From: Treponemataceae bacterium
GTDB taxonomy: Bacteria; Spirochaetota; Spirochaetia; Treponematales; Rectinemataceae
DNA length: 64,000 nt
NCBI GenBank assembly: GCA_963677895.2
Contig: CAXXGJ010000017.1
Location: forward strand, 96,001-160,000
Direction of reading: 5' to 3'
Positions 15,881 through 38,486 of the stretch are shown one piece after another (within the stretch, counting starts at the first letter, position 1; every line of letters starts with the position of its first letter). The notes below the pieces were generated by a model. It saw only the letters and a program-made list of their open reading frames with translations. It was not told the origin of the DNA and made no database searches. Made by a program: the position numbers and the translations under genes.

Positions 15881-16867
15881 ATGAAAAAGAGCATCTTCCC
15901 GTTAGTCTTTGCGCTTATATCGGTACTGTTGCTTTCGGGCTGTCCGGCGATTCTGGATTTTGTAGAAGACCTTATCCCCACGACGACGACCACTACGACG
16001 ACCACTACAACGACAACCACCACAACCCCGCCAACAACAACGACCACGACTACTGTACCGACAACGACTACAACGACGACGACGACCACCACCACTACTA
16101 CTACCACCACGACAGTCCCGCCGCCGACGACGACGAGCACGACCACGACAACCACGATAATGTCCTTTGAGGACACGCTCTCCGCCGCTAACGCGGCATC
16201 AGGGTATGACGGCAGGCTTCCCGTAATTTCCGGCGGGATACAACATTACGTAATCCAGAACAAGATTGATAATCCCTTGACCACCAATCAGGCAGTCGCC
16301 TATTACGCCGATACTGGTAATTTCTCTATTACGCAGCAGACTGGTCCCTTAACAACCTTACCGGTGTCTTTTCCGTCGATATTCATCGGCAACAATAACG
16401 GACATGCTACGTCTGGCAGCGCCCTTCCAATGCTTACCAGCGCTATTTCAAGCATTCCAACAGCCTGGACCTGGTCGAACGCGAATGCCCCATTAGCTGA
16501 TTTCGCCGCCACCTACGAACTATGGTTTACGACAGCGTTTAATAACAGCAGCATCCCGGGCCCGGAATATTCGCTGAATATTTGGCTATACAAGCCGGCC
16601 GGCCATTCGCCAGGCGGGTCTCAGTACGGTTTAGTCATGATAAATGGCCTGCAATGGAATATCTGGATCGATCCTTTTTCTATCACCTACGTGGCGCCCG
16701 CAGCAGCGCGAAACGTGAGTTTCGATCTTGTCTCCTTCATCAACGACGCAAAAGGGCGGGGCATGATTTTAAATTCTGACTATCTCCACGACGTCATCGC
16801 GGGCTTCAGGATATGGTCAGGCGGCGCGGGACTGGCGAGCGGCAATTTCAGCGCATTGGTGCGCTAG
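15881..16867 (+). CDS. Lipoprotein with poly-Thr stalk and glycoside hydrolase family 12-like domain lacking the catalytic Glu residues
   Basis: Lipobox LLSG-C20; about 60-residue Thr/Pro tract; GH12 landmarks FPSIF, IPTAWTW, ATYELWF, LNIWL, SFDLVSF and AGFRIWSGGAGL. Confidence 0.75.
   Translation: MKKSIFPLVFALISVLLLSGCPAILDFVEDLIPTTTTTTTTTTTTTTTTPPTTTTTTTVPTTTTTTTTTTTTTTTTTTVPPPTTTSTTTTTTIMSFEDTLSAANAASGYDGRLPVISGGIQHYVIQNKIDNPLTTNQAVAYYADTGNFSITQQTGPLTTLPVSFPSIFIGNNNGHATSGSALPMLTSAISSIPTAWTWSNANAPLADFAATYELWFTTAFNNSSIPGPEYSLNIWLYKPAGHSPGGSQYGLVMINGLQWNIWIDPFSITYVAPAAARNVSFDLVSFINDAKGRGMILNSDYLHDVIAGFRIWSGGAGLASGNFSALVR
15978..16157 (+). repeat. Degenerate ACN trinucleotide tract (poly-Thr linker)
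   Basis: Long run of ACG/ACC/ACT/ACA codons interrupted by Pro, Val and Ser codons. Confidence 0.9.
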
Positions 16868-18033
16868 GCAACGCTCTTCACTTTCCTGTTAAGCCCGACA
16901 GCGAGTATCAGCGCGGCGGCGAGCGAAAGAGAAGCGCCCAACGCGAAGGGAACCACGGGTCCGAATATATTCCACAAAAATCCAGCGATCACGCTCGCGG
17001 GCAGAAGCGCGATTCCGACGATCGTGGAATGAAGACCGAGCACGGTGCCCTTCAGTTCCTTGGGCGCGATCTCGGCTATGAAGGCGCGTTCGACACCGGC
17101 CGTCATGGCGGTGAAAACTCCATACAAGGCGAAAGCCGCGACGATAACCGCTTTACCGGTGGCCCAGGCAAAGCTGGCATACACGATCGCGAACGTCACA
17201 TACCCGGCGACCAGCACCCATTTTCTCCCGACGCGATCGGATATCTTGCCAAGCGGTATGGAGAGAAGGGACGAGACGATGTTGTACAGGAAATACAGCA
17301 GCACCACCGTGGCCGAATCGAATCCCATGTTTTTAGCCCGAAGAAGAAGGAAAGTGTTCGACGAATTGCCGAGTGTGAATATGAATACGACAACCAGATA
17401 GAGTTTCAGGCGCGAATCGAGATTCTTGAGACTGCCGAAGACGTTGAGCGGCGCCTTTGACTCGCTTGGTTTGTGGGTCTCCTTGATGAAGATGAACATG
17501 AAGAGGGCAGCGAGCGTCGGGATTGCCGAAAGCAGGAAGATCCGCTTGTACGCGAATTCGCCGTTACCGGTCTTCATGATGAAAAACGCGAGGAGAATGC
17601 CCGCCGCCGACCCTGCCATGTCGAGGGCTTTATGAAGCCCAAACGAGTGCCCCAGCTTTTTCGAATCGCTGCTCTCGCTGACGAGCACGTCGCGAGGCGC
17701 CGTCCTGATGCCTTTTCCGAAGCGATCGATTACCCGCGCGGCGAGCACGCCCACCCAGGAACTGGCGAAAATGAGGGCCAGCTTATATATAAGTCCCGTG
17801 GAATAGCCGAAGAAGGCGATGGGCTTTTTCTTCCGGTACTTATCCGTGGCATAGCCGCTGAATACTTTAAGGAGGCTCGCGAGGCTTTCGGCGATTCCCT
17901 CTATCACGCCGACGAGAGCTGGCGTGGCGCCGAATACCGTCGTCAGATACATGGGAATGAGGGGATAGACCATCTCGGTGCTCAGATCGGCGAAAAAACT
18001 GACAAGCCCAATCAAAATTACGTTGTTCATCAT
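16864..18033 (-). CDS. MFS transporter
   Basis: Start MMNNVILIGLVSFF overlaps the upstream stop (TAATG); GYATDKYRKK and GKISDRVGRK MFS loops; DRFGKGIRTAPRD. Confidence 0.9.
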   Translation of the reverse strand: MMNNVILIGLVSFFADLSTEMVYPLIPMYLTTVFGATPALVGVIEGIAESLASLLKVFSGYATDKYRKKKPIAFFGYSTGLIYKLALIFASSWVGVLAARVIDRFGKGIRTAPRDVLVSESSDSKKLGHSFGLHKALDMAGSAAGILLAFFIMKTGNGEFAYKRIFLLSAIPTLAALFMFIFIKETHKPSESKAPLNVFGSLKNLDSRLKLYLVVVFIFTLGNSSNTFLLLRAKNMGFDSATVVLLYFLYNIVSSLLSIPLGKISDRVGRKWVLVAGYVTFAIVYASFAWATGKAVIVAAFALYGVFTAMTAGVERAFIAEIAPKELKGTVLGLHSTIVGIALLPASVIAGFLWNIFGPVVPFALGASLSLAAALILAVGLNRKVKSVA

Positions 18034-19670
18034 TAGCCCAACCTTTCGGGTACAGTATAGACGATAGGCGATACAGCGCTGATCCTTCCGACGAGGGTCA
18101 GCTTCTTTTCGACCGCGAGAGAAAACGCGGCCGTGGTGGGAATGCTTCGCGAAACCACCAGGGGAATGCCCGCTGCGACAGCCTTGGCCGCCATGTCCGC
18201 GGCGATGCGGCCGGAACTGATGAGGCAGCTTCGCGAAAAATCCACTTTTTCGCGAAGCCCGCGTCCTATGGCCTTGTCGACGGCGTTGTGTCTGCCAACG
18301 TCCTCGAAGGTGAATACTAGTCCATTTTCGGGGACGAGAGCGGCGCAGTGCATACCGCCCGTCGTCTTGTACAGCTTGGCCTGGTCGAACATCTCCCGCG
18401 CCCAATCGCGCAGCGATGCCATGGCGAAGGTCCGTGACGGAGAAAGACGGGCGAGCCTGTCGCCATGAAAAATCGAAGCCGGACTCGCGCCGCAGGCCGA
18501 GGGGACGACGGCAAAGCCGGACTCGTGGGCGATATCATGGACGCATTTGATGTGCACGCGCGAATTGTCGGGACAAACCCACAGACTCAGGACTTCGTCC
18601 ATGGACGCGATGAGCCCGCCGCTGAAAAGGTGGCCCAAGGCGAGAACCTCCAGATCGAAGGGACTGCACATAAGCGTAACGATGTCCTTTCCATTCACCT
18701 CGAGCGTGACGGCACTTTCCGGAGCCAGGAGGCGGTTCCTCGGATCGGGAGGAACATCGTTTTCCCGCGCCATAGCGTCCTCGGATTGACGCGTCTTCTC
18801 GCCATTATGTCTTGAAACTATAGTATTCATGGCCAGGCCGGCGAGGAGAAGGAGCGTACCCAGGAGTTTTTTCCATTCAAGGCTTCCTCCCAGGGCAAAT
18901 TCGATGAGTATGCCGGCGAAAGCCTGGCCCGAAAACACGAGCAGCGTAGCGGAAAAAGCCCTTATCCGGGGGAAGATGAGGTTCATGGAGGTGACGACCA
19001 CCACGCCCATGCAGCCTCCCCCGAGCGCGAGAAAGGGACCCGCGGCCGCGACAGACCGCAGCATGTCAGCGACATCGGGCCTGACCAGGGCTACGATGAG
19101 CGATGTCGTGACGAGACCGACGACATAATTGGCGCGCGTGCTTCGCAGGACGCCCTTCTTTCGGCCCAGCTCGGAGTTCAACGCGAAGGAGAGCGCGGGG
19201 AAAGCGCCGGCCGCGAGGGCCGCGGCCATGGCGGAAACATCGGCGCGCCAATGGCCGCCCGACATCACGGCCACGCCAGCCACCGCCAGGAGAAGACTTG
19301 GCGCGCTTCGGAGGCTCAAGGGGTATTTCTTCCTGCCCAGGAGCCCTGTGGCGTCGATGAGGACCGAGAACAATGTCTGGCCGAGAAGCGCGAGCGATAC
19401 GGTCAGCGAGGCGCCGAGTATGCCGAAAGCGTAGTTGTTGGAAAAAACCGTTCCGACGCCTATAAATCCGCCGAGGTAGTAATAAAACGGCAGCCTGCCC
19501 GGTTGGCGCGCTTCCCGTTTCAGCAACAGCGCGACCGATACAGCGACGAGTCCCGCCAGATGAATGAAGAGCACGGCGGCAAGGCTGCCGGCGATCGCGG
19601 AAAAACGGCTGTTCAGGCCGTTCATCAACGTTATGAGAGCGCCGACGAGAGGCGCTAACGCGCTGTACAT
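18033..19670 (-). CDS. fdhD: In-frame fusion of a DMT/YdcZ-like transporter (N-terminal) and FdhD sulfurtransferase (C-terminal)
   Basis: About 290 aa with roughly 10 TM segments, then TLMCSP...LALGHLFSGG, SACG, TGGMHCAAL, EDVGRHNAVDK and SSGR. Possible internal start at 18773. Confidence 0.8.
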   Translation of the reverse strand: MYSALAPLVGALITLMNGLNSRFSAIAGSLAAVLFIHLAGLVAVSVALLLKREARQPGRLPFYYYLGGFIGVGTVFSNNYAFGILGASLTVSLALLGQTLFSVLIDATGLLGRKKYPLSLRSAPSLLLAVAGVAVMSGGHWRADVSAMAAALAAGAFPALSFALNSELGRKKGVLRSTRANYVVGLVTTSLIVALVRPDVADMLRSVAAAGPFLALGGGCMGVVVVTSMNLIFPRIRAFSATLLVFSGQAFAGILIEFALGGSLEWKKLLGTLLLLAGLAMNTIVSRHNGEKTRQSEDAMARENDVPPDPRNRLLAPESAVTLEVNGKDIVTLMCSPFDLEVLALGHLFSGGLIASMDEVLSLWVCPDNSRVHIKCVHDIAHESGFAVVPSACGASPASIFHGDRLARLSPSRTFAMASLRDWAREMFDQAKLYKTTGGMHCAALVPENGLVFTFEDVGRHNAVDKAIGRGLREKVDFSRSCLISSGRIAADMAAKAVAAGIPLVVSRSIPTTAAFSLAVEKKLTLVGRISAVSPIVYTVPERLG

Positions 19671-19704: not shown

Positions 19705-21012
19705 TCAGCGTTCGCGGATGAGGAGGTCCTCGTATGTTTCGCGGCGCACGGAAAGGCGATGCGAACCGTCCCTGGTCATGACGACGGCGGGACGGGGAAT
19801 GCGATTGTAGTTAGAGGCCATGGAGTGGTTGTATGCGCCCGTGGAGAAAACGGCGAGGATGTCGCCCGGTTCTGGATCGGGCAGATCGATGTCGCGTATG
19901 AGGATATCCCCCGTTTCGCAGCACTTGCCCACCACCGTCACCGTGGTACAGCTCGCCCCAACCCGATCCGCCTTATTGGCGCAGAGAGCATGGTATTTAG
20001 CCTCGTAGAGAGCCGGGCGGATGTTGTCGGCCATGCCCCCGTCGACGCCAACGTAGGTGCGTATGCCGGGTATCGTCTTGACGGAACGGAGGGTATACAA
20101 CGTGATGCCCGCTTCGCCGATGATCCAGCGGCCCGGTTCGATCGTCACCCTAGGCATGGGGATCCCCGTTTCCTCGGCGGCGCCGCGCACCAGTTCCATC
20201 ATGGGATCGATGAAGTAGCCGAGGCTCAGCTCGGGATCGCCAGGGAGATAGCGGATGCCGAAGCCTCCGCCGAGGTTGAGCTCGGAGGTCGCATAACCAT
20301 AGCCGGTCTTTACGTCGGCCATGAGTTTCAGCGCTATCCGCAGCGCCGCGAGGTGGGAAAAGTTGTCGTGTAGCTGGGATCCTATATGGAAATGAAATCC
20401 CCTGAAATCGATGTGCGGCGCGTCCAGCACGGCGCGCATATAGAGGTCGCGCAACGACGGGTCGAGAGGAATCCCGAATTTGGAATCCAGGCTCCCGGTG
20501 GAAATGAAGCGGTGCGTATGGCTGTCGACGCCCGGCGTGATCCTGTAGAGCACCCGGATTTTTTTGCCGTAGAGCTCCCCCAGCCTTTCGATTTCTTCGA
20601 TTTCGAAGAGGTTGTCGGATACTATGCGCCCGACATTGGAGCGAATGGCGTAATCGAGTTCGTCGGCCGCCTTGGCGTTGCCGTGAAAAATTATGGTCTC
20701 CGGGTCTATGCCGGCCTTGAGCGCCGCGTAGAGTTCGCCGCCGGAGACGACGTCGAGCCCTAAGCCTTCGTCGGCGACGATCCTGCACATGTCGAGGGTC
20801 TGGAAGGCCTTGCTCGCGTACACCGCCGAGGTATTGGGATACTTTTCCAGAAAAGCCGATCTGATGAGGCCGCAGCGCTCCCTCACCATGGATTCGGAAA
20901 CGACATAGAGGGGAGTACCGTAATGAGCGGCCAGTTCCGTGGCGTCGACGCCATCGAAATAAAGCTTGCTTCCGCAGATTTCCGCGCGGGAATTGAATCC
21001 TGATATGCTCAT
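19705..21012 (-). CDS. lysA: Diaminopimelate decarboxylase
   Basis: YGTPLYV, YASKA (PLP Lys), HGNAK, SKFG, HFHIGSQ, EPGR, GKCCETGD and GAYNHSMASNYN. Confidence 0.93.
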   Translation of the reverse strand: MSISGFNSRAEICGSKLYFDGVDATELAAHYGTPLYVVSESMVRERCGLIRSAFLEKYPNTSAVYASKAFQTLDMCRIVADEGLGLDVVSGGELYAALKAGIDPETIIFHGNAKAADELDYAIRSNVGRIVSDNLFEIEEIERLGELYGKKIRVLYRITPGVDSHTHRFISTGSLDSKFGIPLDPSLRDLYMRAVLDAPHIDFRGFHFHIGSQLHDNFSHLAALRIALKLMADVKTGYGYATSELNLGGGFGIRYLPGDPELSLGYFIDPMMELVRGAAEETGIPMPRVTIEPGRWIIGEAGITLYTLRSVKTIPGIRTYVGVDGGMADNIRPALYEAKYHALCANKADRVGASCTTVTVVGKCCETGDILIRDIDLPDPEPGDILAVFSTGAYNHSMASNYNRIPRPAVVMTRDGSHRLSVRRETYEDLLIRER

Positions 21013-21137
21013 AATGGCATTGTACACGATCCTCAGGCGAAGATTAAGAGTGCCGAAATGTTTTCAATATGGAAAATCCGGCGGCCAGCGGGTATACTTC
21101 GCCCAATATCGCCGACGGCGACGCTTTTATCTAGGGG

Positions 21138-21860
21138 ATGACCATGAAACCACGCATCGGACTCACCACCTTCATCGATCCGCAGGCGCGGGCGAATTAT
21201 GTTTCGCTCAGCGAACACTATACCCGTTCGGTCAGGGACTCGGGCGGCATTCCCTTTCCCATTCCGCTCGTCGAGGACCCGAGTATGGCGGAAGATTATG
21301 TCTCGAACATCAATGGCCTCCTTCTGACGGGAGGCAAGGATATCGATCCCGTTTATTATGGCCAGGATCCCCTTGTCGGGATCGGTCCTTTCGGCGCGGG
21401 ACGCGACGCGTGGGAGATGGCGCTGTTCGCCGCGGCGGCCAGGAAAGCCTTGCCTATTTTCGGAATCTGCAGAGGATGTCAGCTCATCAACGTGGCGATG
21501 GGAGGAACGCTTTTTCAGGATCTGAAAACGCAACGGCCGGGCACGAATGCCCATAGTCCGGAGGATTTCCCCGTGGACAGGCTTTACCATTCCGTCGAAC
21601 TCAAGGAAGGATCGATGCTTCATTGCACCTTCGGAAAAACTTCCCTGCGGGTGAACAGCTTTCATCATCAGGCCGTCAGGGATCTGGCGCCGGGACTGAA
21701 AGCCTCGGCTTTTGCCGCCGACGGCGTCCTGGAAGGTTTCGAGGCGGCGGACGCTTCGCGCTTTCTCGTAGCAGTGCAGTTCCATCCGGAAAGCCTCACG
21801 CTGAGATTTCCGGAATTCCTCGCTCTTTTCAGGGCTTTCGTGGAAGCTGCAGGAGGCTGA
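21138..21860 (+). CDS. Peptidase C26 gamma-glutamyl hydrolase (PuuD-like class I glutamine amidotransferase)
   Basis: GLLLTGGKDIDP, GICRGCQ (Cys nucleophile), VNSFHHQA and VQFHPE. Confidence 0.9.
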   Translation: MTMKPRIGLTTFIDPQARANYVSLSEHYTRSVRDSGGIPFPIPLVEDPSMAEDYVSNINGLLLTGGKDIDPVYYGQDPLVGIGPFGAGRDAWEMALFAAAARKALPIFGICRGCQLINVAMGGTLFQDLKTQRPGTNAHSPEDFPVDRLYHSVELKEGSMLHCTFGKTSLRVNSFHHQAVRDLAPGLKASAFAADGVLEGFEAADASRFLVAVQFHPESLTLRFPEFLALFRAFVEAAGG

Positions 21861-22003: not shown

Positions 22004-23083
22004 TCAACCGGCGAAGGGCGACTCCAGCAGTTCAAGGCTGCGCGCATCGGTGTTCATCCTGTAACGGAGACCGAGCGGCAGGGTCAGGGTCGGGGCGCAG
22101 TGCCCCGCCTCGATGCCCGCGAGAACGGGCTTTCCGCAGGGCAGGATCAGGTCGCGAAGGATTTCCTCGATCGTCAGCGAACGTTTGCCCTCGGCGGGGG
22201 CGCAGCGGGTCCAGGCGCCGATCGCGACGCCCGCGCAGTCTTCGAATTTACCCGCCAGGCGCAGCTGGTTCAGCATCCTGTCGATACGGTAGGGCGCCTC
22301 GTCGACATCCTCGATGAATATGATTTTTCCCCGCGCGTCGAGCTCCCAGGGCGTACCGATGGTGGCCGCGATGAGGGAAAGATTGCCTCCCGTGAGTTCG
22401 CCTTCGGCGATTCCGCCCGAAAGGGTATGAAAAGGACGGCCAGAGGGGTTTGTGAGGCGGAGGATCGGGGATGCGGTGGCGGTGGCGGTGGCGGTGGCGG
22501 CAACGGAGGCCGGGGCGGCTGCCGCTGGGGTGGCAATCGAGGCCAGGCCGGCGGTTTCTGGAAGCCCAAAAAGCGCTGCTTCCAGGGAAGCCCTCGAAGC
22601 CGGATCGAACTCGGGGACCATGTCGGAGGAAGGCATGGGGCCATGGAAGGTGACAAGACCAGCCAATTGGCGAAACGCGGTGTGGAGGGCGGTTATGTCG
22701 CTGTAGCCCAGAAAAACCTTGGGATGGGCGGCGATGATCGAGTAGTCGATGAGATCGAGAATGCGCGGCGTTCCATAGCCGCCTTTGAGGCAGATCACGG
22801 CGCTGGTACCCGGATCGAGAAAGGCGAGTTCCAGCTCGCGAGCCCGGGTCGCGTCTTCTCCGGCGAGGTAGCCATAGGCGTCGGCGCAATGGGGCGAAGC
22901 CTTAACCTTGAAGCCGAGGTCTGAAAGGGCCCGTATGGAGGCTTCGACCCGGTCGGGGCCGCTGGCTGAGCCCGAGGGGGCTATGAGGGAAACTGTGTCG
23001 CCTCGGAGCAGCCGGCGCGGCTTGAGGCGCCGCGGAGCGGGCACGGGCCGGCAGGAAGCCGCGCCGGCGGCAGCGGCCTTCAC
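22004..23083 (-). CDS. ldcA: LD-carboxypeptidase (peptidase S66)
   Basis: IAPSG, KGGYG, GYSDITAL (Ser), HGPM, GGNL, IEDVDE (Glu) and AGH (His). GTG start overlaps the upstream stop (GTGA). Confidence 0.9.
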   Translation of the reverse strand: MKAAAAGAASCRPVPAPRRLKPRRLLRGDTVSLIAPSGSASGPDRVEASIRALSDLGFKVKASPHCADAYGYLAGEDATRARELELAFLDPGTSAVICLKGGYGTPRILDLIDYSIIAAHPKVFLGYSDITALHTAFRQLAGLVTFHGPMPSSDMVPEFDPASRASLEAALFGLPETAGLASIATPAAAAPASVAATATATATASPILRLTNPSGRPFHTLSGGIAEGELTGGNLSLIAATIGTPWELDARGKIIFIEDVDEAPYRIDRMLNQLRLAGKFEDCAGVAIGAWTRCAPAEGKRSLTIEEILRDLILPCGKPVLAGIEAGHCAPTLTLPLGLRYRMNTDARSLELLESPFAG

Positions 23084-24267
23084 GAACGCTTTCCGAGCAG
23101 CCTGGAGACCAGGCCCGCCTGCATGGCGACGCCGATAGGCAGGCAGTCTTCGTCTATATCGAAGGCATTGGAATGCAGAGCCGCCGTAATCCCCTTCCGG
23201 GGGTTGCCGCAACCGAGATGGTAGAAAGAGCCTGGCTTTTCCTGGACGAAGAAGGAAAAATCCTCGACGCCCATGCTCGCCTTATCGCGCCAGATTATAG
23301 AATCAGGACCCAGCAGATCCTTCGCCTCCTCGGCGATGAGATCCACCACCCAATCGTGGTTGATGAGCGCCGCATAGCCCGCGACGATTTCGACTTCACC
23401 GGATCCCCCGAAGGCGACAGGCAGGTTGGCGACGATGGCCCTCACCCTCTCCGCGATTTCCGCTCTTACCTGAGGATTCGTCGTTCTTATGGTGCCCGTC
23501 ATCCTCACCTCGTCGGCGATGATGTTGTTGCGGGTGCCTCCCTGGATGGTTCCGAGCGTAAGCACGGCTTCCTGGAGGGGAGAGACGTAGCGGGAAACCA
23601 CCGAATGGAGCGCGTCCACTACCTTGGCCGCTATCATGATGGCGTCGATGCCCGTGCTGGGATAGGCGGCATGAGCTCCCTTGCCCCGTATGGTGACGCC
23701 GAGAAAATCGGAGGAGCCATTGAGGGCCCCATGCTTCAGCTCGACCTTTCCCGTCGGCACATCCGGCATGACATGGAGCCCTATGACAAAATCGACATGG
23801 GGATTCTCGAGACAGCCGTCGGCGATCATCTTCGCCGCCCCGCCCGTCGTCTCTTCTGCGGGCTGGAAAAGAAACTTGACCGATCCCTCCAGCTTGTTCC
23901 GATGCTCCATCCAGTATTTCGCCGTGCCCAAAGCGATCGTCATATGGGCGTCGTGGCCGCAAGCGTGCATGTAACCCTTGTGGAGGGACGCATAGACGCG
24001 ATCGGCGGATTCATTCACCGGCAAGGCATCCATGTCCGCCCTCACGCCGACCACTTTGCCGGATTTTTTTCCCTCGACGAGCGCCACGATGGAGGTTCGC
24101 CTTTTTTCGTAGGGGACACCAAGTTCTTCCAGGATGCCGCAGACCGCTTCCTGCGTCTCGAACTCGGCGTCGCCGGCTTCAGGTATCCGGTGGAGAGTCC
24201 TACGCGTCTGGACGAGCCAGTCCTTCATCGTTTTCATTGCTTCCAGCAATTCCTTACCTGTCGACAT
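23080..24267 (-). CDS. M20 family amidohydrolase/metallopeptidase
   Basis: LHRIPE, RADMDALP, MHACGHDAH, FQPAEE, GAHAAYP, MGVEDF and LHS; TAAGGAG RBS. Confidence 0.9.
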   Translation of the reverse strand: MSTGKELLEAMKTMKDWLVQTRRTLHRIPEAGDAEFETQEAVCGILEELGVPYEKRRTSIVALVEGKKSGKVVGVRADMDALPVNESADRVYASLHKGYMHACGHDAHMTIALGTAKYWMEHRNKLEGSVKFLFQPAEETTGGAAKMIADGCLENPHVDFVIGLHVMPDVPTGKVELKHGALNGSSDFLGVTIRGKGAHAAYPSTGIDAIMIAAKVVDALHSVVSRYVSPLQEAVLTLGTIQGGTRNNIIADEVRMTGTIRTTNPQVRAEIAERVRAIVANLPVAFGGSGEVEIVAGYAALINHDWVVDLIAEEAKDLLGPDSIIWRDKASMGVEDFSFFVQEKPGSFYHLGCGNPRKGITAALHSNAFDIDEDCLPIGVAMQAGLVSRLLGKRS

Positions 24268-24307: not shown

Positions 24308-25504
24308 CTAGAACCGCCGCAGCGTCGATCCCGAGAGACGATTATCCAGAGCGACAACCTTCCCGCTTCGCGTATACAAGCGCGGGACCCTTCTTCCGAT
24401 ACCGCACAGCAGCTCGTTCCTGTTGGTGGATCCCCATTCGGAAGCTTCGTTCAGGCTTATGGCCCCTCCTCCCAGAAGGATCACTTCATCGCCTTCGGCA
24501 ACGCCATCGACAGCTCCCACGTCCACCATAGTCTGGTCCATGCAGACCAGGCCAACTACCATCGCCCTCTTCCCCCTGATGAAGACCTGAGCCTTGTTGC
24601 CGAAGCGCCGGGGATAGCCGTCGGCGTACCCGACTGGAAGCGTGGCCACAAGCGTGCCTCCCTTCGGAGCCTGCCATGAATCGTCGTAGGAAACCATTTC
24701 GCCCTCTTCCAGCCGCCTGATTCTCGCGATCCGCGTGACGAAAGTTCCCGCCGGGGGGAATGGGTACGCATCGTATTCAGCCCCCATTCTCGAAGGCCTG
24801 ACGCCGAAAAACGCCGCCCCTACCCTGACCATGTCGAGCCTGAATTCGGGGTACCGGACGGCGCCTATGCTATCGCAGACATGGCGCTGCCCGGTTGGAA
24901 TGCCCTTCGCGGCACAGCCGGCCAAAATTTCATTATAGGCCGCGAATTGAGCCATATCCGATTCCCGATCGCGAAGCGCGAGATGAGTAAAAATCCCACG
25001 CAGATCCAGTCCCGGCATTCCCGCGATAGTCCCGATTATTCCGACGGTATCCTCGTAAGGCTTCATGCCCAGCCGGTTCATCCCTGTATCCAGCTTGATA
25101 TGGACGGGAAGAACCGCGCCTGCCTTGACCGCCGCGTCGGAAAAAGCCCCGGCGTTCTTCGCGTCAAACAAGGTGGGCATAATTCGATGCTCGACGGCAA
25201 GGCCGGCAAATTCCTCTGGTGTATGCCCCATGACGAGGAGATCGGCATCGGGAAAGGCCATCCGCAGCTCGAGGGCTTCGGAAATCGTGGCGACGGCGAG
25301 CAGGTCGGCGCCGGCCGCCAGCAGCGTCCCGCCGATCATCACGGCGCCGTGCCCGTAGGCGTCTGCCTTGATGACGGCGGCGATCTTCACCGTATCTCCT
25401 ACGATAGTCTTCATATCCCGGAAATTGGATTCCACGACATCGAGATCGATGGAATAATAGGTCTGTCGGCCCAGACTTCTCAGGATATCGCCGCCGGGCT
25501 TCAT
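24308..25504 (-). CDS. alr: Alanine racemase-family PLP racemase, divergent paralogue
   Basis: IKADAYGHG, HIKLDTGMNRLG, VSYD (catalytic Tyr), GYADG and CMDQ, but atypical HVCDSIG and GLVCMDQ. Confidence 0.85.
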   Translation of the reverse strand: MKPGGDILRSLGRQTYYSIDLDVVESNFRDMKTIVGDTVKIAAVIKADAYGHGAVMIGGTLLAAGADLLAVATISEALELRMAFPDADLLVMGHTPEEFAGLAVEHRIMPTLFDAKNAGAFSDAAVKAGAVLPVHIKLDTGMNRLGMKPYEDTVGIIGTIAGMPGLDLRGIFTHLALRDRESDMAQFAAYNEILAGCAAKGIPTGQRHVCDSIGAVRYPEFRLDMVRVGAAFFGVRPSRMGAEYDAYPFPPAGTFVTRIARIRRLEEGEMVSYDDSWQAPKGGTLVATLPVGYADGYPRRFGNKAQVFIRGKRAMVVGLVCMDQTMVDVGAVDGVAEGDEVILLGGGAISLNEASEWGSTNRNELLCGIGRRVPRLYTRSGKVVALDNRLSGSTLRRF

Positions 25505-26442
25505 TATTTCCCGCCCGCCAGACGGGGATTCCCGCCCCCGAGGGCGCCAAAATTCTTCAGGCTCAGTATCATCGCCTCCGAGAACCGCCCTTCGTAAATA
25601 CAGAGCGCGGGACCCGTCATCAGCACCGATGGGCGGGAAAGATCGAGCGAAAGAATCCCGCCGGGCATATGCACCCGGACGAGCCCCTCGACCAATCCCA
25701 GCTTTTTGGCGACGCTCGCCGCGGCGCAGGAGGAAGAGCCGCTCGCCAGCGTATAGCCCGCCCCCCTCTCCCATATCTCTATCCGCAGGTTGTGCCTGTC
25801 CATCACTGTCGCGAACTGCACATTGGTCCGCTCGGGAAAGAGCCGATGATTCTCGACGAGGGGACCCAGGCGTTTCGCCAGCTCAGGCGTCGGGTTTTCG
25901 GCAAAAATGACGCAGTGTGGATTGCCCATGGAGACGAAGGTCGCGGAAACGCTTTCGGTTCCCAGATCCAGCTTCCCCTGGACGAATTCCGGAAAATCGG
26001 TCGCGAGTCCGGCGGCGGATGCCGAAAAAGAAGGCTCGCCCATATCCACCTTTATGCGAGGCGGATCGAGGCTTTCGACCTTAGCCAGAACCCTGCCGCC
26101 TTTCGTGCCCACGGGAAATTCCTCGCCGTTCACGTAGCCTTGTTCCGCGAGGAATAGGCAGAAAATCCTCAGCCCATTGCCGCTCTTTTCGGCTTCGGAA
26201 CCATCCGGATTGAAGATCCTGACCCATGGAGTCGCGGCGAGGCCGAGGAGGCCGGCGGGCATGCCCGCGAGATCGTTTTCGGAGGCGAGAGGTCCCAGCA
26301 GTATGCCGTCGGAACCGGCGCCCATGTTCCTGTCGCAGATCGCCCGCACGGCGTCGGCCACGGGCACGAAGGGAAATTCCCTTGGGTCGATGACGATATA
26401 ATCGTTGCCCAGGGCATGGTATTTCCTGAACTCAGCCGACAT
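25504..26442 (-). CDS. dapF: Diaminopimelate epimerase family protein, Ser/Ser active-site variant
   Basis: KYHALGNDY, GSDG, NPDGSEAEKSGNG, MGNPHCV, FPERTNV and WERGAGYTLASGSS. Confidence 0.9.
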   Translation of the reverse strand: MSAEFRKYHALGNDYIVIDPREFPFVPVADAVRAICDRNMGAGSDGILLGPLASENDLAGMPAGLLGLAATPWVRIFNPDGSEAEKSGNGLRIFCLFLAEQGYVNGEEFPVGTKGGRVLAKVESLDPPRIKVDMGEPSFSASAAGLATDFPEFVQGKLDLGTESVSATFVSMGNPHCVIFAENPTPELAKRLGPLVENHRLFPERTNVQFATVMDRHNLRIEIWERGAGYTLASGSSSCAAASVAKKLGLVEGLVRVHMPGGILSLDLSRPSVLMTGPALCIYEGRFSEAMILSLKNFGALGGGNPRLAGGK

Positions 26443-27553
26443 CGGCTCCTCCCTTCGCGATCCTGGGCACGCGCTTCGAGATGCCGCAGGTCACTTCATA
26501 ATCGATGGTGCCCATAAGGCCGGCGAGTTCTCCGGCGGGCAATTCGGGAAGACCGAAAAGAGTGACCTCATCGTCAAGCATGGCTTCGGGGATATCCGTT
26601 ATGTCTATCATCACCTGATCCATGCAGATTCGACCCGCGATGGGTGCCTTCCTTCCCCTTACGATCACGCTGCCTTTATTCGAGAGGAGACGGGAATAGC
26701 CGTCGGCGTAACCGATCTGCAAAAGAGCGATGCGCGAATCCCGCCGCGCGGTGAAGAGCCTGCCGTAGCTGACGCTTTCTCCTTTTTTCAGCAGGCGGAT
26801 ATTGGCTATGGACGCGCAGAGCTGCATGACTGGGAGGAATCCCTCAGGCGGATTCGGATTCGCGTCGGGGGAAAGGCCGTAGAAGAGTATGCCGGGACGA
26901 ACCATATCGAATCGCGCTTCGGGGATATGGAGAAGAGCGGCGCTGTTGGAAATATGCCGTATGGGGGGGCAGACGCCGGCCGCCTTCATGCTTTCGACAG
27001 CGCGCCGGAATTCGGCGAGCTGACGATAGGTGAAGGAAGTGTCGGGATTGTCGGCGTCCGCGAAATGGGAGTAGACGCCTTCAATATATAATCCTTCCAT
27101 GGACGCGAGCGAACGGGAAAAGGATTCCGCGTCATCGGGGGAAATGCCCTGGCGATGCATGCCCGTATCGATCTTGACGTGGATTTTGGCCGGATGATTC
27201 AGGCGGCGCGCGGACTTGGCGAGCGCGAGCGCGAGTTCCATAGTGTACACGGTCTGCGTAATATTCTGCGATACTACAATATCGGCGTTTGAGGGATCGG
27301 TGGTGCCGAGAACGAGGAGGGGCGAGGCGATGCCGGCCGAGCGAAGCTCCAGGGCTTCTTCCAGAAGGGCTACCGCGAGATAATCGATTCCCTCGCGGTC
27401 GAGGGTGCGCGATACGGCGATGGCGTCATGGCCGTAAGCGTCGGCCTTGACGACGGCGCAGACTTTTGCCTGGCCGGCAAGGATTCGAATTTTACGCAGG
27501 TTGTTGACGAGATTGTCGGTGTGAATATAAGCGGCGGCTTTTCTGTTCATCAT
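26432..27553 (-). CDS. alr: Alanine racemase
   Basis: AVVKADAYGH, DTGMHRQG, YSHFA, HISNSAA, MVRPGI, VSYG, GYADG and GRICMDQ. Confidence 0.92.
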   Translation of the reverse strand: MMNRKAAAYIHTDNLVNNLRKIRILAGQAKVCAVVKADAYGHDAIAVSRTLDREGIDYLAVALLEEALELRSAGIASPLLVLGTTDPSNADIVVSQNITQTVYTMELALALAKSARRLNHPAKIHVKIDTGMHRQGISPDDAESFSRSLASMEGLYIEGVYSHFADADNPDTSFTYRQLAEFRRAVESMKAAGVCPPIRHISNSAALLHIPEARFDMVRPGILFYGLSPDANPNPPEGFLPVMQLCASIANIRLLKKGESVSYGRLFTARRDSRIALLQIGYADGYSRLLSNKGSVIVRGRKAPIAGRICMDQVMIDITDIPEAMLDDEVTLFGLPELPAGELAGLMGTIDYEVTCGISKRVPRIAKGGADVG

Positions 27554-27559
27554 ATAGTA

Positions 27560-28774
27560 TCAGCCTTTCTCCTGATCTTGGCGTTTCGGTTGCGTTGTTT
27601 GATTTGCTCGGCTCGATGAGCTCGGTCCGCTGCAGGCGGTCAGCGTCTTGTCCCAGATGAAAAGCTCGGCTTTCGCCCCCACCTCTATGCTTCCCCCCTG
27701 CCCGCCGGCCGTGAAGCCGAGGGCGGCGCCGGGCGTGCGACTCATGGAGGCAAGCGCAGGGGCGAGGGAAAGACCAGTGGCCTCCATGAAGGATTTCACT
27801 ATCTGCATGCCTAATTTATTGGATCCGATAAGCGTGCCCGTTTCGCTGTAGCGCACACCGTTCAGGCTGGAGGAAACGGACTTCCCGAAATAGCGGTATT
27901 CGCCGTACTCCAGGCCGGCGGATACCACGGCGTCGCTTGTGAGGATGAGGCGTTCCGAGGGGATGCATCGCGAGGCTGCCTTCATGCTGCTGTCGTTCAC
28001 GTGGATACCGTCGGCGTTGAGTTCGGTCCACGCGGGGATGCCCGCGAGGGCTATGTTGACGAGGCCGCCGCCGCCACTTCGGTGGTCCAGCCCGCTCATC
28101 GCGTTGAAGAGATGGGTCACGGAAAAGGGCGGCGGCGGCAAGGCGACTCCGGCGCTCGCGCCCGAGTGCCCCAGCGAAACAAGGACACCATTCTCTCTCA
28201 GTATCGGATAGAGCGACTCGATGCCCGGCAATTCCGGCGCGAGCGCCATTATCCTGAGCCTGCCCCTGGCCGTCTCGATGATTTTCCTGCACAAGTCAGC
28301 GTCCGGAGCCTCTATCTGCGGCAGGTTTATCCCTCCGCGATGCTTCGGGTCGATGAAGGGACCTTCGATATATATTCCCGGAATAACCTCGGGGGGCAAC
28401 CGCGAAGCCTCGATGGCATCCACGAGCCTTCCCACGGCCCCCTCATCCCAGAGGATGGTGGGAACAAAACACCCCACTCCCCTCTTTTCCAGTTTCCTCG
28501 CGACCTCTAGGATATCCTCGGCGCCCCCGACGCTTTCAAAGCCTATGCCGAAGGCTCCATGGATATGCATTTCCACAAGCCGCGGCGCTACGAAAGAGCC
28601 GCCGCAATCGACGACGGCCAAATCGCGGTCTTCAGGGTTGGATAACAAGTATTCTTCAAGGCTTTCTTCGCCGACATGACGGATCCTTCCCTCCCTGACG
28701 ACGAGGATTCCCCCTTCGAGAAGCCGGTCGGGCAGGACGAATGTGCCTCCCGAGAGGATTTGATTGTCAGCCAT
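27560..28774 (-). CDS. nagA: N-acetylglucosamine-6-phosphate deacetylase-like amidohydrolase
   Basis: MHIHG, IEGPF, LAPE, LGHS, THLFNAM, ADGIHV and LTSDA. Confidence 0.85.
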   Translation of the reverse strand: MADNQILSGGTFVLPDRLLEGGILVVREGRIRHVGEESLEEYLLSNPEDRDLAVVDCGGSFVAPRLVEMHIHGAFGIGFESVGGAEDILEVARKLEKRGVGCFVPTILWDEGAVGRLVDAIEASRLPPEVIPGIYIEGPFIDPKHRGGINLPQIEAPDADLCRKIIETARGRLRIMALAPELPGIESLYPILRENGVLVSLGHSGASAGVALPPPPFSVTHLFNAMSGLDHRSGGGGLVNIALAGIPAWTELNADGIHVNDSSMKAASRCIPSERLILTSDAVVSAGLEYGEYRYFGKSVSSSLNGVRYSETGTLIGSNKLGMQIVKSFMEATGLSLAPALASMSRTPGAALGFTAGGQGGSIEVGAKAELFIWDKTLTACSGPSSSSRANQTTQPKRQDQEKG

Positions 28775-28911
28775 ACTGCCAGCATTGTCGTACAGCTTGG
28801 CCTCGCGTGTAAAGGCAAGGGAGCTTCTTTCTTCGGCGTACATGACAAGCTTCCCGCTTCCGCGTTATCATAGATAGACCAATCGCCCTAAGGAATCCCC
28901 AAGGAACGACG

Positions 28912-37835: not shown

Positions 37836-38486
37836 TTAAATCTCGAATCTGCGCGCCAAGTATTCGCGCCTCGTCGCCACGAGCTCCTCGAGTTCCGCGA
37901 GCATGCGCGTATCGGCCAGCCTGGCGATCGGATAAACATGATTCTCTGTCTCGTTCGTGTAGCGCTGGACGAAGTTTATGTCGGTGACATAGCCAAGGCT
38001 TATCATATTGGAGATTCTGTCGGCCGATTTGAGCACCTTGGCGCGCATGGAACCGAAATCGCGGATCCTCGCGAGGAAATCGATCTTGTTCTCGATGGGG
38101 CGACGCGTCACTTCCAGCACGAGCCTGTAGACGCCCGCCGATTCGTCGTCTATGGAGAGGATGCTGTCCCTGTCGATCTCGGGCACGTCCTCGATGAGGT
38201 CGTGGATAAGCGATGCCTTGAGGAGCACGGAATCGATGTAGCCATAGTCCATCAGAATGGCCATCGTGTCGAGCTGATGCCTGAACATGTTGCCCCCGCT
38301 TCTTCTCAGCTTGCCGATGAGGCCGGTGGCGAGCTGGATATAGGGCGCGAGGTGCATGTTCTTGAGTCTGAGCATCGCGTCCTCATCCATGGGGACGCTT
38401 TCCGAACGCAGCGGGAGACTGGAATTCTGCATGCCGGGAAAATCCTGGGCATCAAACGGAATACCTGACCTCCCGTCCGAATTCAT
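37836..38486 (-). CDS. HD-domain protein of the RelA/SpoT hydrolase type (small alarmone hydrolase-like)
   Basis: RRSG...FRH, LIHDLIED, EVT and KSADRISNM; no synthetase domain. The real start could be a later Met. Confidence 0.75.
   Translation of the reverse strand: MNSDGRSGIPFDAQDFPGMQNSSLPLRSESVPMDEDAMLRLKNMHLAPYIQLATGLIGKLRRSGGNMFRHQLDTMAILMDYGYIDSVLLKASLIHDLIEDVPEIDRDSILSIDDESAGVYRLVLEVTRRPIENKIDFLARIRDFGSMRAKVLKSADRISNMISLGYVTDINFVQRYTNETENHVYPIARLADTRMLAELEELVATRREYLARRFEI

Follow-up and report, generated by a model that had tools for sequence, protein, structure and literature searches.

A spirochaete DapF-family protein with serines at both catalytic positions, encoded in a gene cluster resembling peptidoglycan-peptide recycling loci

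Introduction

Diaminopimelate (DAP) epimerases of the DapF family with two catalytic serines were identified by Lamer and colleagues, according to an excerpt of PMC13728532 (its reference 23: Lamer, van Belkum, Chen et al., J Mol Biol 437:169375, 2025). The same excerpt states that Anabaena sp. YBS01 possesses both a Cys/Cys and a Ser/Ser DapF, that a Ser-to-Cys change renders the Ser/Ser enzyme inactive, and that protection against oxidative stress has been voiced as a reason for the serines. Two further systems are close in gene content to the locus described here: a staphylococcal operon encoding DapF2, an Alr2-family protein, and the B. subtilis dpp-ykfABCD locus for murein peptide recycling.

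Here we analyze a dapF gene in a 64,000-nucleotide stretch of DNA (the window) from a Treponemataceae bacterium. A preliminary description of the window had noted that serines replace both catalytic cysteines of this protein, and mentioned reports of such variants in other bacteria. The mention was correct: a working Ser/Ser enzyme is attributed to Lamer et al. (2025) in the available portion of PMC13728532. In the literature collection that we searched, "catalytic serines" with epimerase returned only PMC13728532, a search from 2024 on combining DapF, serine-serine and spirochaete returned nothing relevant, and a search on dppA, ykfA and recycling returned no match. Judged by its serine pair, the 312-residue protein is a further member of the class already described, and its gene context, a recycling-like cluster, is the sole addition to what is known.

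Results

The dapF reading frame (25504..26442, minus strand) is uninterrupted and encodes 312 residues. The protein scores 215.7 bits against the DapF model TIGR00652 (cut-off 114.65) and contains two PF01678 domains. Its first catalytic position is Ser87 (codon AGC, 26182..26184, minus strand), in an EKSGNG motif starting at residue 85, and its second is Ser234 (codon AGC, 25741..25743, minus strand), in a TLASGSS motif starting at residue 231. Both lie where the preliminary description had placed them, and they align with the xxCGNG and xACGxG cysteines of the DapF proteins from E. coli, Anabaena (9MRO) and Arabidopsis; the canonical Cys/Cys pair is absent. The four substrate-binding motifs that had been called intact were all found (GND at residue 12, NPH at 174, TNV at 206 and ERG at 225), and the alignment shows the DAP-binding residues N13, N78, N89, N174, H176, N207, E225 and R226 to be present and conserved. 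The gene is intact, and serines replace both catalytic cysteines.

We built an AF2 model of the protein from a 45-row alignment (mean pLDDT 95.8). In a Foldseek search, the best match to this model was the DapF structure 9MRO (E = 1.3e-30), which points to a two-domain DapF fold; among the matches listed, the top 21 rows were all DapF except for an O-ureidoserine racemase. An ESM Atlas search returned DapF clusters only. We identified no Ser/Ser entry among the 17 PDB sequences matched.

We examined conservation of the serine pair in a close alignment of 121 rows, comprising the query and 120 listed of 7999 homologues. Both serines are present in 119 of the 121 rows, and the two exceptions are a fragment that does not include the first site and a row that diverges after residue 200. 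By site, position 87 is serine in 120 of the 120 rows that cover it, and position 234 in 120 of 121. By their source labels, the named top homologues among the matches listed come from Rectinemataceae or Spirochaetia. A wider genome scan recovered 73 Ser/Ser and seven Cys/Cys loci among the best 80 of 592, a ratio that says nothing about frequency, as the scan was seeded with the Ser/Ser alignment. These best 80 loci represent Verrucomicrobiota, Planctomycetota, Chloroflexota, Myxococcota, Thermodesulfobacteriota, Bacillota, Pseudomonadota and other groups, with no cyanobacterial locus among them. Residues N13, N78, N89, N174, N207, E225 and R226 are invariant in all 73 distant Ser/Ser loci, which also share the clade-specific residues Lys86 (71/73), Tyr230 (71/73) and Ser237 (70/73).

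The codons for the two serines differ among the 73 distant loci: position 87 is encoded by AGY in 60 and TCN in 13, and position 234 by AGY in 13 and TCN in 60. Compared with two same-genus orthologues, the gene has dN/dS values of 0.18 and 0.10. Since serine is kept across both codon families and dN/dS is low, we reject decay of dapF as an explanation for the paired change, and the sequences argue that the pair is conserved by selection, as had been suggested from the window alone. In a quick tree of 110 rows (rows shorter than 220 residues dropped, midpoint root, only 14 non-Ser/Ser rows as outgroup), all 95 Ser/Ser rows and one truncated row form a single branch with an SH-aLRT value of 100, within which the family's Ser/Ser genes and one Holophaga gene form a sub-branch at 99. 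The pair is thus kept across one clade and many phyla.

In the window, dapF is part of a cluster whose minus-strand order is nagA-like, alr1, dapF, alr2, M20 and S66, with a C26 gene on the plus strand and then lysA. The first gene (27560..28843, minus strand) encodes a NagA-like amidohydrolase, possibly a GlcNAc-6-phosphate deacetylase, that at 155 bits falls below the TIGR00221 cut-off of 225.65. The alanine racemase gene alr1 (26432..27553, minus strand; TIGR00492, 378 bits), likely the housekeeping one, has a stop that overlaps the dapF start, and the dapF stop overlaps in a TAATG with the start of alr2 (24308..25504, minus strand; TIGR00492, 300 bits), which encodes a second, divergent Alr-family PLP racemase. 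Next come an M20 amidohydrolase (23080..24267, minus strand; TIGR01891, 351.6 bits), a candidate N-acyl-DAP deacylase or peptide hydrolase, and an S66 LD-carboxypeptidase of the LdcA/YkfA type (22004..23083, minus strand; PF02016 and PF17676), whose start we placed from a GTGA overlap. The C26 gamma-glutamyl peptidase family protein (21138..21860, plus strand; PF07722, with GICRGCQ and QFHPE motifs) may be a gamma-D-Glu-DAP hydrolase. Diaminopimelate decarboxylase LysA (19705..21027, minus strand; TIGR01048, 431 bits, cut-off 297.9) is encoded 4.5 kb downstream of dapF.

The product of alr2 is 36% identical to that of alr1. Its PLP lysine motif IKADAYGHG is retained, whereas other parts have diverged (HLAL, CDSIG), and the gene comes and goes together with that for the S66 peptidase. 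The protein is a candidate non-alanine racemase or DapF2-like epimerase. Three other genes in the window are of separate interest. A single 545-residue frame (18033-19670, minus strand) spans two YdcZ-type exporter domains and an FdhD domain; same-genus relatives match only part of it, and it may be a recent fusion or read-through. The gene at 15881-16867 (plus strand) encodes a lipoprotein-like product that has a GH12 glycoside hydrolase domain as well as a long Thr/Pro linker. A 216-residue protein (37836-38486, minus strand) without a Pfam match at 1e-5 has an H...HD pattern like that of RelA/SpoT-type hydrolases.

Elsewhere in the genome, a de novo operon (C18:78030-83271) encodes Asd, aspartate kinase (LysC), DapB, DapA and DapD, with dapA, dapB, asd and dapD all scoring over their profile cut-offs. 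The aspartate-semialdehyde dehydrogenase (C18:78030-79277) is over the cut-off for TIGR00978 (asd_EA) rather than for the bacterial-type model. No LL-DAP aminotransferase scored over the cut-off in the genome and no DAP dehydrogenase was found there, so synthesis goes by way of LL-DAP, the product of the succinylase route, which requires an epimerase ahead of LysA. No dapC or dapE orthologue was assigned in this genome. We followed the suggestion to look for a separate Cys/Cys dapF and found no second DapF of any kind by tblastn and PF01678 across this genome, which is 92.8% complete, so that a copy may be missing from the assembly.

The MurE of this bacterium (C38:450010-451467) has EDPR in place of the DNPR consensus, a weak hint that the cell's own wall may not use meso-DAP and that the third residue is possibly not DAP; the hint is weak because DAP is an in vitro substrate of the T. 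maritima MurE, which has DDPR, according to an excerpt of bioRxiv 2022.01.05.475093.

We scanned 71 immediate neighbors of Ser/Ser genes outside the family, leaving out two spirochaete loci and skipping ORFs longer than 700 residues. Five of the 71 indicate a link with the DAP pathway or with the operon typical of it: dapA adjoins two of the genes (L123, L151), LL-DAP aminotransferase two more (L127, L132), and DUF484, which we take to be linked to the proteobacterial dapF operon, one (L168). Most of the others are unrelated or have no Pfam match. Genes resembling lysA also lie beside distant members. These neighbors support an ordinary DAP epimerase function for the clade, and because distant members adjoin dapA, dapL and lysA, ordinary LL/meso-DAP epimerization is the most likely activity. 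The alternative epimerization that had been suggested earlier, acting on another DAP stereoisomer pair or a DAP analogue, is unsupported by these neighbors, by the invariant DAP-recognition motifs of the distant loci, and by the lack of a second dapF among the genes found in this genome. We therefore predict, with a probability of about three in four, that the Ser/Ser DapF interconverts LL- and meso-DAP and supplies meso-DAP to the neighboring LysA for conversion to L-lysine. The enzyme is most likely an ordinary LL/meso-DAP epimerase in a salvage cluster that here would also complete de novo synthesis, and it likely contributes to lysine synthesis from two sources, the cell's own pathway and peptides scavenged from cell walls.

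We next compared 37 genomes of the family, of which 23 have the Ser/Ser gene (G017 with only the first serine on its contig, and G003 with a divergent GDSGNG form), two carry just a Cys/Cys paralogue, and 12 lack any DapF over the cut-off. The M20 amidohydrolase follows dapF in all 19 family loci whose contig extends, and lysA lies in the same stretch in 15 of 23 loci, the contigs ending first in the other eight; these two genes are the constant neighbors of dapF in the family. In 19 of the 23 loci alr1 precedes dapF (undecidable in one), and in 15 alr2 follows it (a remnant in one, undecidable in one). The position of dapF between two racemases, to which the preliminary description had given weight, thus holds for the two Alr-family genes of the window, but we reject it as a constant or defining context: the downstream racemase is absent from six family loci, the same six that have no S66 peptidase, and the upstream one from three.

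The earlier impression of a catabolic operon was borne out in the spirochaete family, whose loci include recycling-type genes (LD-carboxypeptidase, DppA, oligopeptide ABC transporter, racemases and lysA). An M55 D-aminopeptidase, which we take to be DppA, lies beside S66 in G003, G049 and G014, and in G004, G006 and G033 the cluster is bordered by a gene for a family-5 peptide-binding protein. In the present genome the peptide ABC transporter and D-aminopeptidase are unlinked to the cluster, with orthologues at C18:211727 and C22:59462. The Holophaga gene is placed after genes for an oligopeptide ABC ATPase, Alr, a YkuD protein and LysA-like and dipeptide-epimerase-like proteins, and the gene adjoining it is of the enolase family and dipeptide-epimerase-like. 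By analogy, the family cluster resembles one for peptidoglycan-peptide recycling.

Across the family, the Ser/Ser gene tracks lysA over the cut-off (20/23 genomes, versus 5/14 of those without the gene). Counter to our main reading, it does not track the de novo pathway (dapD, 18/23 versus 10/14; dapB, 20/23 versus 12/14); Fisher tests on these co-occurrences overstate, as the genomes are kin rather than independent. Both dapB and dapD are nevertheless present in eight of the 12 genomes that lack a DapF over the cut-off, so that lysine synthesis in the family may not depend on DapF. These eight are G007, G008, G014, G019, G023, G024, G030 and the fragmented G009, in which no DAP dehydrogenase was found either. 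Two genomes have gene contents that fit DAP salvage: G032 (96% complete, 690 contigs) has lysA and the Ser/Ser gene as its only DapF, with no dapA over the cut-off and no dapB or dapD found, and G049 (99% complete), in which neither a DapF nor de novo genes were found, retains alr2-M20-M55-S66-lysA.

We considered whether, in G012 and G031, a Cys/Cys DapF-like gene stands in for a lost Ser/Ser gene, and rejected this: it is a distant paralogue with 27-30% identity, and G003 and G015 have both genes. In G012, G015 and G003 the paralogue adjoins a D-cysteine-desulfhydrase-like gene. At three loci (L077:2311-3150, L079:5823-6704 and L070:3161-3952) it has KMCGNA or RMCGNA and LACGTGA motifs and lies directly 3' of the D-cysteine-desulfhydrase-like gene and an ABC transporter, and a role in lanthionine or cystine-type catabolism is possible. 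Separately, DapF domains occur in-frame with carbamoyl-phosphate synthase large chain in G043 (L101:4123-8172, by Pfam) and G054 (L102:7187-11269), with Gly/Cys and Ser/Cys at the catalytic positions.

Among other explanations, the one that survives best, though we consider it unlikely, is that the protein serves recycling and acts mainly on a wall diamino acid related to LL-DAP, for example lanthionine or DD-DAP, rather than on LL-DAP itself. This would suit the recycling-type cluster, the absence of any link between the Ser/Ser gene and dapD, and G032, where dapA, dapB and dapD were all looked for without success and this gene is the sole DapF. In addition, Gly46 of the Ser/Ser protein aligns with Gly47 of the Anabaena enzyme, and in the portion of PMC12039745 available the difference between Anabaena Gly47 and H. 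influenzae Gln44 is linked to lanthionine tolerance. However, ordinary Anabaena and plant DapFs also have this glycine, which therefore predicts side activity at most; a lanthionine side activity of the Ser/Ser protein is plausible on this basis without making it a different enzyme. The distal-site arginine and asparagine set is invariant, including in all 73 distant loci the ERG arginine that selects the distal L-centre, which argues against DD-DAP. The constant partner LysA uses meso-DAP, and other members of the clade lie in de novo lysine operons.

We judge it highly improbable that alr2 encodes the real DAP epimerase, as staphylococcal DapF2 does, with the Ser/Ser protein secondary. The idea draws on that Alr2-family protein, which complements dapF and shares an operon with an amidohydrolase (PMC13759103, in the portion available), and on G019 and G049, which keep alr2-M20-lysA with no DapF found. 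Against it, the six Ser/Ser loci out of 23 that have lost alr2 with S66 keep dapF-M20, and the best solved relatives of the alr2 product are Alr proteins at ~35-40% identity. Slightly less credible still is a catalytically dead protein that binds DAP or regulates. Cys-to-Ser substitution is the usual way to disable one half-reaction in cysteine-type racemases (glutamate racemase, in an excerpt of PMC8142540), and C73S and C217S structures are among the Foldseek matches listed; but natural Ser/Ser DapFs are described as using their serines catalytically (PMC13728532, in the excerpt), no other DapF was found in the genome, and the serines of this one are fixed rather than drifting. Finally, we dismiss a takeover of catalysis by the cysteine of SSSC (Cys239), which the preliminary description had raised, or by Cys177: although Cys239 is present in 120 of the 121 close rows (query and 120 listed of 7999 homologues) and Cys177 in all 73 distant Ser/Ser loci, position 239 in those loci (best 80 of 592) is Cys in only 30, Ser in 39, Thr in three and Ile in one, and both align with non-catalytic cysteines of ordinary DapFs (GTGAC/GSGAC and NPHC, respectively).

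Discussion

Our data favor an ordinary LL/meso-DAP epimerase that works with serines. Ser87 and Ser234 would act as base and acid in a two-base 1,1-proton transfer, the mechanism reported for the Ser/Ser enzyme of Anabaena, and are probably helped by their clade-specific neighbors Lys86 and Ser237, which may activate them. LL-DAP would come from the succinylase route, with the adjacent M20 enzyme a candidate deacylase, and also from wall peptides that the cell scavenges and the S66, M55 and C26 peptidases cut down. As the serine chemistry is already reported, the spirochaete gene adds little there. It is, though, the only DapF found in a spirochaete that, judging from its relatives, is probably anaerobic, which fits poorly with the idea that the serines generally serve to protect against oxidative stress.

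More tentatively, and with somewhat less than even confidence, we propose that the spirochaete/Holophaga Ser/Ser DapF is the stereochemistry-correcting step in harvesting lysine from the walls of other bacteria: stem peptides would enter through an oligopeptide ABC transporter and be shortened by S66, M55, C26 and M20 enzymes, and the LL-DAP set free (perhaps also lanthionine) would be epimerized and passed to LysA. Rectinema cohabitans is described in an excerpt of PMC6052044 as a necromass fermenter that expresses peptide transporters. If the proposal is true, it defines a testable route from foreign peptidoglycan to lysine in necromass-feeding spirochaetes and suggests substrates to try for the products of three neighbors, alr2, M20 and C26. 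Salvage would then be the sole role of the Ser/Ser DapF in members in which no de novo DAP genes were found (G032, and also G003), and the C26 protein would represent a novel type of gamma-D-Glu-DAP hydrolase.

Compared with Cys/Cys DapF (TIGR00652; PDB 9MRO from Anabaena, 4IJZ from E. coli, 3EJX from Arabidopsis), the protein has the same fold and DAP-binding motifs at ~34-36% identity, and its model aligns with 9MRO at a TM-score of 0.79 by query and 0.88 by target. It differs in having Ser87 and Ser234 for the two cysteines, Lys86 for Met or Gln, GSSS for GTGA, and an insertion of ~12 residues at positions 57-72. The cluster shares an LD-carboxypeptidase with the B. subtilis dpp-ykfABCD locus, as described in an excerpt of PMC2954226; the peptide ABC transporter that accompanies this enzyme there is represented beside the cluster by the binding protein of G004, G006 and G033, and relatives of our genome also carry M55. 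No gamma-D-Glu-DAP peptidase (YkfC, an NlpC/P60 protein, or MpaA) and no L-Ala-D-Glu epimerase (YkfB) was seen in the window cluster, which instead has a C26 peptidase, a candidate only for the former activity, two Alr-family racemases, DapF and LysA. The staphylococcal DapF2 (Alr2)-amidohydrolase operon, to which we liken alr2 by gene context from the available part of PMC13759103, likewise places an Alr-family paralogue beside an M20 amidohydrolase in a lysine context, but the spirochaete cluster includes a DapF-family gene as well. The Ser/Ser DapF of Anabaena sp. YBS01, likened here from its description in the excerpt of PMC13728532, has the same DapF fold and a serine at each of the two catalytic positions. 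In Anabaena it is accompanied by a Cys/Cys DapF, whereas our Ser/Ser protein is the only DapF found in our 92.8% complete genome, and set against that description the recycling-type gene cluster is particular to the spirochaete and Holophaga subclade.
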